Of a stretch of 64,000 bases of DNA, positions 143 through 64,000 are shown piece after piece (position 1 is the first letter of the stretch; each line of letters starts with the position of its first letter). Source of the stretch: a virus (Duplodnaviria; Caudoviricetes). Location of the stretch: positions 3,525-67,524 of the IMG/VR virus record IMGVR_UViG_3300027763_000057. The stretch is one strand, 5' to 3'. Below the pieces are notes generated by a model. The model had not been told where the DNA came from. It did no database searches and saw only the letters and a list, made by a program, of their open reading frames with translations. Position numbers and translations under genes: made by a program.

Positions 143-193
143 CAAAGTTAAGTTAATTATTTTAAATTAAAAAATATTTTTAAATTAATTTTG
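143..193. promoter_or_regulatory. divergent Bacteroidota-type -7 promoter elements
   Basis: TAACTTTG on minus strand (143-150) and TAATTTTG on plus strand (186-193) match TAnnTTTG. Confidence 0.55.
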
Positions 194-842
194 TTGCCTA
201 ATAGGGCAACTTTTGTTACCAAAATGGGAACTTTGTTTCTTATTTGCATGAATTTTACATTAGATTTCATGCAATAGTTTATAAATTGGCAATATATGTC
301 TAGTTTTTGATACTAAAAACTTGACAAATTCGGAAGTGAAACTCGGACAATATCCGAATTAGTGTCACCAATTTATATAAATATGTGACAAATTAAGGGG
401 TAATTCGGTTATATCTTGTAACATATAAAGGGTAAGATTTGTTACAAAATAGGTGCAAATGAATATAAATGGGCGCAAAGTAGTAATAATACTACCCTAA
501 TAGCAAAAAATGTAAACTCTGCAAGTTTTGATAGTGTTCACTTATTTAAGTTGTTCATGTTCCGTGAACGGAGATAAAAAATGAACTGTTGTATAAAATG
601 CAACAATTACTCAATGGAGTGAGTAATTTTACTCAATGAGCCGTAAATGATTGACAATCGGCTCAAGAATGATTGATAAAGTGCCTTATAAAGCACAAAA
701 GCATATCAGAATGTGCATTTTATGACGCATTATGCAATCATTAGTGTCAAATAATGCACTTTATGGTGGATATTTTCATCGCAAATCCGCCAAACCCTTA
801 TAAACATTCGCTTTAGCGAAAAATTTTCCAGAACACTTGGAA
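193..842 (+). ncRNA. non-coding array of ~17 tandem, mutually unrelated inverted repeats; putative structured RNA or operator array
   Basis: No ORF >=60 aa; consecutive stems such as TTGCATGAA/TTCATGCAA, AATTCGGA/TCCGAATT, TTGTAACA/TGTTACAA, AATTACTCA/TGAGTAATT, TGAGCCG/CGGCTCA. Confidence 0.5.
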
Positions 843-1044: not shown

Positions 1045-1143
1045 GCAATTATTGAGCGGGAAACTTGCTACGATATAGTGTTAAAATTTTAACAAAGCTT
1101 TAACTTTTGTGTTGATTGTGGTATGGGATAGGGGGTGTATATT
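1045..1143 (+). repeat. 99-bp inverted repeat, copy 1
   Basis: Exact reverse complement of 63902-64000. Confidence 0.97.
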
Positions 1144-62670: not shown

Positions 62671-63588
62671 TTATTCTTCGTGTGTTTCTTCTTGCTTGTT
62701 AAGGATATATTTAGCTGATTTACTTGCTCTTTGACTTGCCATAAGGAAAAGTTTTTTATCCCCTTTTATGGCGTTTTTCCAATTCTTTAAGTAGGCTATT
62801 GAATTGCGTTCGGTGTTTTCGTTACTGATGCCAATTTCAGCACATATAAAGGCACTCGTTAATTCTGCGGTCAATTCTTCCGTGCCATAATCACATGAAC
62901 CGAAAAAACTTGTTTCTACTACTTCCTTACGATTAAGGCGGTTTTTGTGTCCCGTGCTATGGCTAATTTCGTGGAAAAAAGTACTATAAAATGATTGCGA
63001 ACTATTAAATTGATTTAGCAATGGCATTGTAATACTATCGGTTGATGGTTGATAATATGCCCTATCGCTTTCCTTAATATTGTAGCGTATTGCTTCCCGT
63101 GTTTGGTAGCTGTCGACAATATTTTGTGCAATATCAATTTTTTCGTTTTCGCTGTACTCGGTTGCGGGTGCTGTAACTTCGTCCCCTTTAATTGTTACAT
63201 TGTCGCATTGTTCTAAATTGAACACATTATAATAGCGTAATAAAGGAACTTTTTTCGTTTCGTCTTGTTGGGTGGTGGTGTTTAATTTAGTATATTCATT
63301 CACCTTCCAAAATACTATCATAGTGGATTTTTCGCCCTTTCTAACATTCCCGCCTAACTGCTCAACTTGTTTATAAGTTAGCCAATATTGAGAGGTGTAA
63401 TCGTGCATAGATAAAAGGAAAAAATTAATCCCTTCATAGCGTTTTTTACTGATGCCGTTCATTGGAAAAGCGTTTGTCCCCTGTTTGGTTTTCCATTCTT
63501 TAACCCAATTCAATTTACCCGTTTTCTCAATTTCATCAAGAATTTTTTGGGTTACTACTTCGTAAAGGTCAAAATTTGTGTTTTTCAT
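62671..63588 (-). CDS. ardC: ArdC-family antirestriction ssDNA-binding protein with zincin domain
   Basis: WVKEW...YEGIN...WLTYKQ...VRKGEK...YNVFNLEQ; HEISHSTGH; EELTAE. Confidence 0.92.
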   Translation of the reverse strand: MKNTNFDLYEVVTQKILDEIEKTGKLNWVKEWKTKQGTNAFPMNGISKKRYEGINFFLLSMHDYTSQYWLTYKQVEQLGGNVRKGEKSTMIVFWKVNEYTKLNTTTQQDETKKVPLLRYYNVFNLEQCDNVTIKGDEVTAPATEYSENEKIDIAQNIVDSYQTREAIRYNIKESDRAYYQPSTDSITMPLLNQFNSSQSFYSTFFHEISHSTGHKNRLNRKEVVETSFFGSCDYGTEELTAELTSAFICAEIGISNENTERNSIAYLKNWKNAIKGDKKLFLMASQRASKSAKYILNKQEETHEE

Positions 63589-63901: not shown

Positions 63902-64000
63902 AATATACACCCCCTATCCCATACCACAATCAACACAAAAGTTAAAGCTTTGTTAAAATTTTAACACTATATCGTAGCAAGTTTCCCGCTCAATAATTGC
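63902..64000 (-). repeat. inverted repeat, copy 2 (runs off the window)
   Basis: Exact reverse complement of 1045-1143. Confidence 0.97.

Follow-up and report, generated by a model that had tools for sequence, protein, structure and literature searches.

The non-coding array near the left end of a 64,000-nucleotide stretch of phage DNA (the window) is best read as a shared decoy cassette, whose palindromes would titrate autoregulatory defence proteins of the host and so serve as a counter-defence. A probability of roughly 0.6 is assigned to this reading, which is drawn from sequence comparisons. Host matches, obtained for about half of the units, lie at defence or toxin-antitoxin genes of bacteria of the Chitinophagaceae, the likely host family. 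The families matched are three AbiE subfamilies, SoFic-like Fic, AAA-DUF4143 (PDC-S01), RhuM-Fic and, weakly, a DUF4160-HTH pair; for about half of the units a host match was not found in the loci compared. The first-pass annotation had offered a cassette of different palindromic operators for host regulators or defence as one of two options, and the matches at host AbiE, Fic, PDC-S01 and RhuM-Fic genes favor that option. A broader statement, that freshwater Bacteroidota phages trade a protein-free and RNA-free library of decoy operators, set in helical phase, which disarms many unrelated abortive-infection and toxin-antitoxin systems, is judged slightly better than an even bet.

All 17 of the stems listed by the first-pass annotation were found where it had placed them, with seven to nine Watson-Crick pairs in the first seven to ten positions for most stems and five or six in the shortest. 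The mismatches were also as described, four being T-G (199/204, 592/600, 704/713 and 767/789) and one C-A (685/692). The density of inverted repeats exceeds that of shuffled controls. Positions 193-842 contain eight perfect inverted repeats with a stem of at least 7 (1.8 +/- 1.3, maximum 6, in 300 dinucleotide shuffles) and 16 with a stem of at least 6 (6.3 +/- 2.6 in the same number of shuffles). The array is overlapped by the two densest 650-nt intervals of the 67.5-kb contig, with 12 and 9 inverted repeats against a mean of 1.9. Folding z-scores, from 20 shuffles each, were -8.9 for RNA of the plus strand, -6.1 for RNA of the minus strand and -11.8 for DNA. The proposed extent of 193-842 holds for hairpins generally, but the last two (807-842) are absent from cassettes in other contexts. 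The description of the units as mutually unrelated holds only in part, as half-sites recur and are interleaved at 22-bp spacing. A CRISPR array had been excluded, and indeed no repeat family has more than three short copies in positions 1-1500. A tRNA scan, and a blastn search of the array region against GenBank phages, gave no match. The units are collected in Table 1.

Table 1. Units of the array and related features of the window, with the closest host sites (identical positions/aligned positions)
Feature	Positions	Strand	Remarks
Operator-like cassette (whole)	193..795	none	Double-stranded DNA, both orientations across phages; inside inverted terminal repeat
GTTGCC-N6-GGCAAC unit	193..214	none	17/22 to L478 and L475, palindrome before DUF4160 + HTH_3 two-gene modules; weak; terminator-like hairpin on plus strand
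TGCATGAA-N12/13-TTCATGCA unit	243..275	none	Upstream DNA of AbiEi subfamily 3: L290 25/33, L289 24/33, L293 24/33
TGTCTAG-N16-CTTGACA unit	295..330	none	Palindrome before AbiEi subfamily 2 genes: L279 31/36, L285 28/36
Half-site	321..335	none	L198 14/15, palindrome before genes of an AAA_14-DUF4143 subfamily; overlap with 295..330 unit; weak
TCGGA-N5-TCCGA	343..357	none	Fits Bacteroidota LexA-like box GGA-N5-TCC; sole such site in contig; assignment uncertain
TGTCAC-N16-GTGACA unit	361..394 (to 396 in longer alignment)	none	Paired palindromes before DUF6088/AbiEi-AbiEii operons: L272 29/34, 31/36
TGTAACA-N16-TGTTACA unit	414..447	none	Upstream repeat of a PDC-S01 subfamily, L219 17/23 and 25/36
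GTGCAAA/GCGCAAA repeat, GTAGTA-N4-TACTAC, TAGCAAAA..TTTTGATA and GTTCAC/GTGAAC cluster	452..581	none	Conserved across arrays
AACTGTTGTA-N5-TGCAACAATT unit	582..608	none	Palindrome inside RhuM-Fic genes (PADLOC PDC-S23/S05): L263 23/27, L262 22/27
TTACTCA-N6-TGAGTAA-NN-TTACTCA unit	605..637	none	22-bp-periodic sites at start of ~394-aa AAA_14-DUF4143 genes (PADLOC PDC-S01): L148 27/33
TGAGCCG-N15-CGGCTCA unit	636..666	none	Paired palindromes overlapping DUF4172-Fic gene start (PADLOC SoFic model): L242 24/31
Interleaved 22-bp direct repeat (TGATTGA; TGAGCGA in other strains) with N8-spaced palindromes	647..760	none	No host match found
Unit like tandem sites before another DUF4143 subfamily	762..781	none	L204 16/20; weak
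Two hairpins, G+C-rich inner terminal repeat	807..842	none	807-820 terminator-like on minus strand; outside shared cassette
Inner end of ~4.8-kb inverted terminal repeat	1045..1143	+	Exact reverse complement of the last 99 nt of the contig
Second copy of the repeat's inner end	63902..64000	-	Supplies TATATTTG element before early genes (ArdC-like gene)

The evidence points to a DNA element rather than a structured RNA, because compensatory changes are lacking, the units are phased at 10.6 bp with overlapping half-sites, and blocks of units are gained, lost and inverted among relatives. The 28 related loci gave 21 distinct arrays, including that of this phage, and complete arrays range from 273 to 811 nt; because the copies are related to each other, figures pooled over arrays cannot be treated as independent. 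Among 10 units compared in 25 arrays there were 43 departures from pairing, namely 19 breaks, 13 G-T, 10 A-C and one two-sided change, and the latter is a switch between two arm types that are both present in hosts. The numbers of G-T and A-C departures show no strand bias. A G+C content period of 10.3-10.8 bp, reached by none of 60 shuffles, was seen in 17 of 20 arrays (the exceptions are L011, L027 and L028). For the array of this phage the normalised power of the G+C period is 16.7, where the genome median, taken over 427 intervals, is 2.8, and 5-mer direct repeats at 22 bp number six against 0.3 expected. The arms of the TGTCAC-N16 unit are fixed while its spacers vary, with 13 spacers in 21 arrays. 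The comparison of relatives for gain or loss of units, which had been proposed as a check, showed all of these events en bloc. For example, five relatives (L109, L110, L113, L114 and L115) carry the same units in the same order, inverted relative to the 65-aa gene and outside the terminal repeat. Inverted cassettes make up seven of 55 loci, a count that includes repeats of the same contigs.

The other option of the first-pass annotation, namely a long, structured non-coding RNA with a promoter of its own, is opposed by the absence of covariation and of strand bias, the 10.6-bp phasing, the inversion of the cassette relative to the promoter and the terminator-like hairpins that flank it. An inward-facing hairpin of this kind lies on either side of the cassette in the same five relatives (the right side from a terminator scan in L113 and L114, the left side from folding), and we infer that the cassette is transcriptionally silent. 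An Rfam search gave no family at gathering score in the window, with only E>1 matches in positions 1-1300. The proposed promoter sequence TAATTTTG is present at 186-193, but does not fit the role of the array's own promoter: comparison with L027 and L110 suggests that it straddles the point of joining between the cassette and the flanking DNA, and directly after it, at 193-214, comes a terminator-like hairpin that has a run of T. In the relatives L109 (4370-4450) and L110 (5225-5290), with coordinates given for the terminus placed at the left, and in L113, L114, L115 and L108, an TATATTTG element lies about 65 nt ahead of a terminator-like hairpin whose loop is often GTTTCTAC. This pair is possibly a small RNA divergent from the 65-aa gene, and the candidate has been lost in this phage.

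Pattern searches for single units covered 151 genomes of the family of genome G002, with the reversed pattern as control, and host gene families were named via Pfam and PADLOC. The TGAGCCG-N15-CGGCTCA unit was found in 68 genomes against 18 for the control at one mismatch or fewer, and exact sites in hosts are often paired, 44 bp apart. Of the 20 loci fetched for this unit six contained an exact site; four of these six, together with one mismatched site, lie at the start of a DUF4172-Fic gene, the product of which scores best against the PADLOC SoFic model. TTACTCA-N6-TGAGTAA was found in 14 genomes (control 5), and its 14 loci comprise eight tandem arrangements at the starts of ~394-aa AAA_14-DUF4143 (PDC-S01) genes, three tandem arrangements without an intact gene in the stretch and three chance-like sites. 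An unsteered blastn search of the array against plasmids returned two records, one of them a Bacteroides finegoldii plasmid that matches at 607-638, the match there preceding an ATP-binding protein gene by 12 bp. TGTTGCA-W5-TGCAACA occurred in three genomes and none for the control, with two of the three sites inside RhuM-Fic genes. The first unit (193..214) was found in four of 201 genomes (control 2), twice before DUF4160 + HTH_3 pairs; DUF4160/DUF2442 is listed as a dhiTA module (PMC8198452). The 414..447 unit, besides its match in Table 1, also matches the arrangement between two AbiEi palindromes of L179.

Several searches were null. TGTYAC-N16-GTRACA was not enriched genome-wide (38 genomes against 41 for the control), the exact TGCATGAA pattern gave only two unrelated coding matches in the 151 genomes, and none of five TGCAC-N8-GTGCA matches was at a defence gene. 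Those units of 452..581 that were tried matched nothing in the fetched host loci. The TCGGA-N5-TCCGA site was found in one of five genomes, as was its control; the LexA-like motif given for Chitinophagaceae, CTAA-N5-TTAG, differs from the Bacteroidota box GGA-N5-TCC that it fits (PMC8565304). Three more specific proposals found no support. First, a verbatim capture of the part containing the Fic-type site and the direct repeats was discarded, the composite string being in no bacterial genome searched. Secondly, the 22-bp repeats were considered as LytTR or WYL sites, and for WYL none of five loci matched. Third, the N8 palindromes as HipB-type sites were unsupported by both pattern search and locus comparison.

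A reverse test was also performed, in which loci were chosen by protein family rather than by motif and the upstream 125 nt were scored against the array. A score of at least 24 was reached by 10 of 25 AbiEi/DUF6088 regions, two of 24 DUF4143 regions, two of 26 Fic regions and one of 210 other upstream regions. The AbiEi matches include three of 12 strong and seven of 13 weak family hits. The upstream test used 25 of the 30 DUF6088 loci (without L287-L291), and the whole-locus test used all 30. One control, L151, was dropped as it had been fetched via the TTACTCA pattern; the single control match, L150, had been fetched likewise. The reverse test found 361-396 as the first AbiE-type site (31/36 to L272) and 295-330 as the second (31/36 to L279), and whole-locus scoring added the third AbiEi subfamily (L289, L290 and L293) for 243-275. 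In whole-locus scoring 12 of 30 DUF6088 loci matched, against six of 124 with the reversed or complemented array, while Schlafen (1/12), HipA (1/8), WYL (0/5), ORF6N (0/10) and RhuM (0/9) loci stayed at background. In an earlier, smaller version the bulk shift was non-significant for DUF4143 (p 0.07) and Fic (p 0.15) upstream regions, and the signal for these two families appears confined to a few subfamilies. Both AbiEi and AbiEii were confirmed for L178, L272, L285 and L289, the downstream partners being AbiEii.

The phage units at AbiE-type sites appear to be orphan copies that lie outside any cognate operon promoter. A TAnnTTTG element accompanies the gene-proximal host site in all five AbiE loci and only one of 22 phage AbiEi-type units; the TGTCAC-N16-GTGACA unit, for example, is without it. 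The Fic, DUF4143, AbiEi, RhuM and Bro-N host proteins gave no tblastn match in the contig at E<0.1, where a cognate phage gene could be missing since the contig is rated 63% complete.

Two further observations concern the host genes. A palindrome internal to Bro-N genes was found in eight of 151 genomes (control 2), five times inside Bro-N-like genes, and it matches a unit of the relatives' cassettes that is missing from this phage. Host Bro-N and RhuM-Fic genes (L188-L191, L193, L262 and L263) contain a perfect palindrome within the coding sequence which is copied in phage cassettes, and this suggests intragenic autoregulatory sites. In addition, every AAA_14-DUF4143 gene (L196-L225) has a tandem palindrome or repeat of its own upstream of the start codon, and these differ between subfamilies, as would be expected of a fast-diversifying protein-DNA code.

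The host sites are probably operators, given their position, their tandem repetition and the analogy with AbiEi and SoFic. AbiEi represses its own operon via promoter inverted repeats (PMC7319586), and SoFic binds the 100-bp stretch before its own start, as a dimer (10.64898/2026.07.09.737422). The phage copies may likewise bind the host defence proteins. As phage DNA multiplies, many copies of the sites would arise in the cell and the self-regulating DNA-binding proteins of the host would be titrated. With AbiE and DUF4160-HTH, which are two-gene modules, the antitoxin-repressor would be drawn away from the host promoter by the decoys, antitoxin synthesis would rise before host shut-off, and DNA-bound antitoxin would be shielded from proteolysis, so that the toxin would stay neutralised. 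AbiEi induces auto-phosphorylation of AbiEii, which inactivates it (10.64898/2026.01.19.700257), and for the MqsA antitoxin DNA binding may protect from degradation (10.1101/2020.03.02.972737). In one-gene systems (Fic, PDC-S01, RhuM-Fic) the effector would be tethered on phage DNA, away from its target. Each phage lineage would retain the units suited to the systems of its host population.

The decoy reading is awkward for the one-gene systems, because titration would raise expression of the effector and the DNA-binding dimer of SoFic, which has been described as an abortive-infection toxin (PMC12249575), is also its AMPylating form (10.64898/2026.07.09.737422). It is further weakened by the half of the units that lack a host match and the several null pattern tests. 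Lastly, it is weakened in that PDC-S01 and PDC-S23 rank only as candidate systems, the host assignment is itself indirect, and the AbiE of S. agalactiae did not protect E. coli against 32 coliphages (10.64898/2026.01.19.700257).

The Fic-type site was found in at least 119 viral loci, and about 580 stored viral stretches are estimated to contain it. Among the 119 listed viral loci, those with one or more other unit types within 450 nt number 44, and 29 of the loci have two or more; the corresponding counts for control motifs were two and none. The cassette was found in several gene contexts: in the family of this phage, before another large terminase, downstream of a conserved 172-aa gene, and in the vicinity of a virion structural gene or of a nuclease gene. 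The terminase beside one cassette belongs to another PHROG family and is unrelated to that of this phage (BLASTP E=1.6). These contexts, including the unrelated terminase, make it likely that the cassette is exchanged among phages which share hosts. The cassette holds no fixed position relative to the genome end, as it lies in the terminal repeat here, in the interior in five relatives and beside other genes in unrelated phages. The pattern AATTACTCA-N4-8-TGAGTAATT was found at 25 loci in viral contigs, mostly by chance, and only L047, L049, L051 and L061 align to the array. No array was found upstream of relatives of the first early gene in the six loci inspected. In some strains a nuclease-like gene (its product starting ..YFIK/VYIIKQSDYVKIGYT..) is inserted at or beside the cassette (right of the array in L011; L419).

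The contig represents a tailed phage, with a terminase, a portal and an ArdC-like gene (62671-63588). The array is read as part of a ~4.8-kb inverted terminal repeat on four grounds: the 99-nt reverse complement (Table 1), a separate 4,814-nt contig (L006) that is identical from 1143 outward, two junctions in relatives, where the terminal segment abuts either the early genes or the gene at 1217, and a second long contig (L069/L070) with the same fold-back. Since the cassette is inside this repeat, it is likely present twice per genome in this phage. The inverted terminal repeats of L109-L115 are about 1.5-2 kb. The outer end of the repeat holds a RusA gene and a site that we take to be dif-like; an A+T-rich palindrome, which at the start of L118 is perfect and 52 nt long, lies about 30-60 nt from this site. 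The dif-like pattern matched 20 genome loci, of which 15 have Bacteroidota titles, two of these being Chitinophagaceae; of 13 viral loci 12 lie within 100 nt of a contig end. The host-family genome G002 and more distant relatives were obtained from these matches, and the host probably belongs to the Chitinophagaceae. The genome appears to be linear with ~4.8-kb inverted terminal repeats. Neither a protelomerase nor a tyrosine recombinase was matched in the contig, and the ends of L006, L069/L070, L013 and L118 suggest hairpin or head-to-head termini resolved by RusA and/or host XerCD, a poxvirus-like arrangement for a tailed phage.

Several other features of this region were noted. The segment 843-1045 of the inner repeat is G+T-skewed and rich in G runs, and distant relatives are alike in composition and not in sequence; it is possibly a packaging or replication signal. 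Two TGTAGCTACA palindromes at 1152-1205 precede a 98-aa gene (1217-1513), with which they are conserved in the L109-L115 relatives, and are probably the operator of that gene; its product is ribbon-helix-helix-like by eye and has no Pfam or PHROG match. Repeats of TTTTAACAAAACTTTAACTTT at 59385-59300 (minus strand) resemble the elements 134-158 and 1084-1107, which lie ahead of promoter-like sites, and may possibly be an early-promoter motif of the phage.

Among the other explanations the strongest, although unlikely, is that the same proteins are titrated in order to switch on host defence operons and so keep out competing phages (superinfection exclusion), the phage perhaps persisting in a carrier or plasmid-like state. 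Titration of an autorepressor directly raises expression of its operon, as established for autoregulated modules, the toxic form of SoFic is the DNA-binding form, and the dif-like site with palindromic ends would permit a non-lytic state. However, the cell that hosts the carrier phage would itself be killed by abortive systems, and the very different phages that carry the cassette would each need immunity to every primed system. Searches of the contig for an integrase, a protelomerase and an HTH_3 repressor also gave no match.

Use of the sites by the phage as sensors, with host defence regulators bound to the cassette controlling neighboring phage genes, is improbable. The cassette does adjoin the leftward promoter of the 65-aa gene operon in this phage family, but it occurs in both orientations and beside different neighbors (terminase, structural and nuclease genes), terminator-like hairpins separate it from the promoter in relatives, and most units are hundreds of bases from any promoter-like site. 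A marginally poorer case can be made for docking sites of phage-encoded proteins, or for a packaging or ejection signal like the T5 injection-stop region. This would suit the place of the cassette in this phage, close to where its long terminal repeat has its inner end; the cassettes of L109, L110, L113, L114 and L115 are instead in the genome interior, the units match host defence-gene sites and keep the host spacing, and tblastn with five host proteins found no cognate homologue in the contig.

Neutral debris, that is, host promoter fragments captured by recombination and passed among phages without function, is very improbable. Units are freely lost, as the range of array lengths indicates, yet the palindromes alone are common to phage and host, with no flanking gene sequence; the arms are constant where the spacers vary, half-sites belonging to different units are interleaved in phase with the DNA helix, and distant phages keep the order of units. 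Least probable of all is the long non-coding RNA, or hairpin RNAs processed from it, which would account for the strong folding score, slightly better on the plus strand, and for the TAATTTTG element, but must contend with the departures from pairing, the inversion relative to the promoter and the empty Rfam search noted above, with many "loops" of fixed length (13-18 nt), and with a DNA folding score that is equally strong, as palindromes would give.

If the decoy reading is correct, an array of host operators in a phage genome would be a further kind of counter-defence, invisible to gene-centred annotation; to our knowledge, the known phage counter-defences are proteins, modified bases or RNAs. 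The element is already widespread in one habitat, freshwater, by the estimate for its Fic-type unit given above. Its list of units would also be a catalogue, written by phages, of defence-relevant host genes, including the candidates PDC-S01 and PDC-S23, and the units that lack a host match could serve as baits for finding further systems. Short DNA probes could address two questions, namely whether operator occupancy controls when autoregulated defence proteins fire in infection, and whether the AAA-DUF4143 and RhuM-Fic genes act as defences against phages. A literature search, with subscription journals largely outside its coverage, gave no report of a natural operator-decoy array in a phage. 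The host sites resemble autoregulatory operators that are already known, and what appears new is a detached, multi-family and mobile operator array in phage genomes.

The cassette can be compared with four known kinds of element. First, as in AbiE operators and SoFic promoter sites, the host matches are palindromes at the starts of AbiEi-AbiEii and wHTH-Fic genes, often paired or in tandem. In contrast, the phage sites are detached from the cognate gene, packed with sites of other families and mostly without an overlapping promoter element. Secondly, the T5 injection-stop region is a palindrome-rich segment of a terminal repeat, and the cassette resembles it in being non-coding, rich in palindromes and, in this phage, close to the inner end of a long terminal repeat; unlike that region, its position is not conserved and its palindromes match host defence-gene sites. 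Third, phage sponge proteins (Tad, Acb2) and DNA-mimic proteins (Ocr) are counter-defences by stoichiometric sequestration, as the cassette would be. The cassette differs in having no protein product; its sink would be the replicating genome and its target the DNA-binding domain of the defence protein. Lastly, the pseudo-ToxI repeats of phage PhiTE act against ToxIN, and RNA anti-CRISPRs are likewise nucleic-acid mimics. In these cases too, non-coding copies of a host defence element are kept by the phage, gained and lost, and blunt that same defence; those mimics, however, are RNA directed against one system, whereas the cassette is likely double-stranded DNA directed against at least five protein families.
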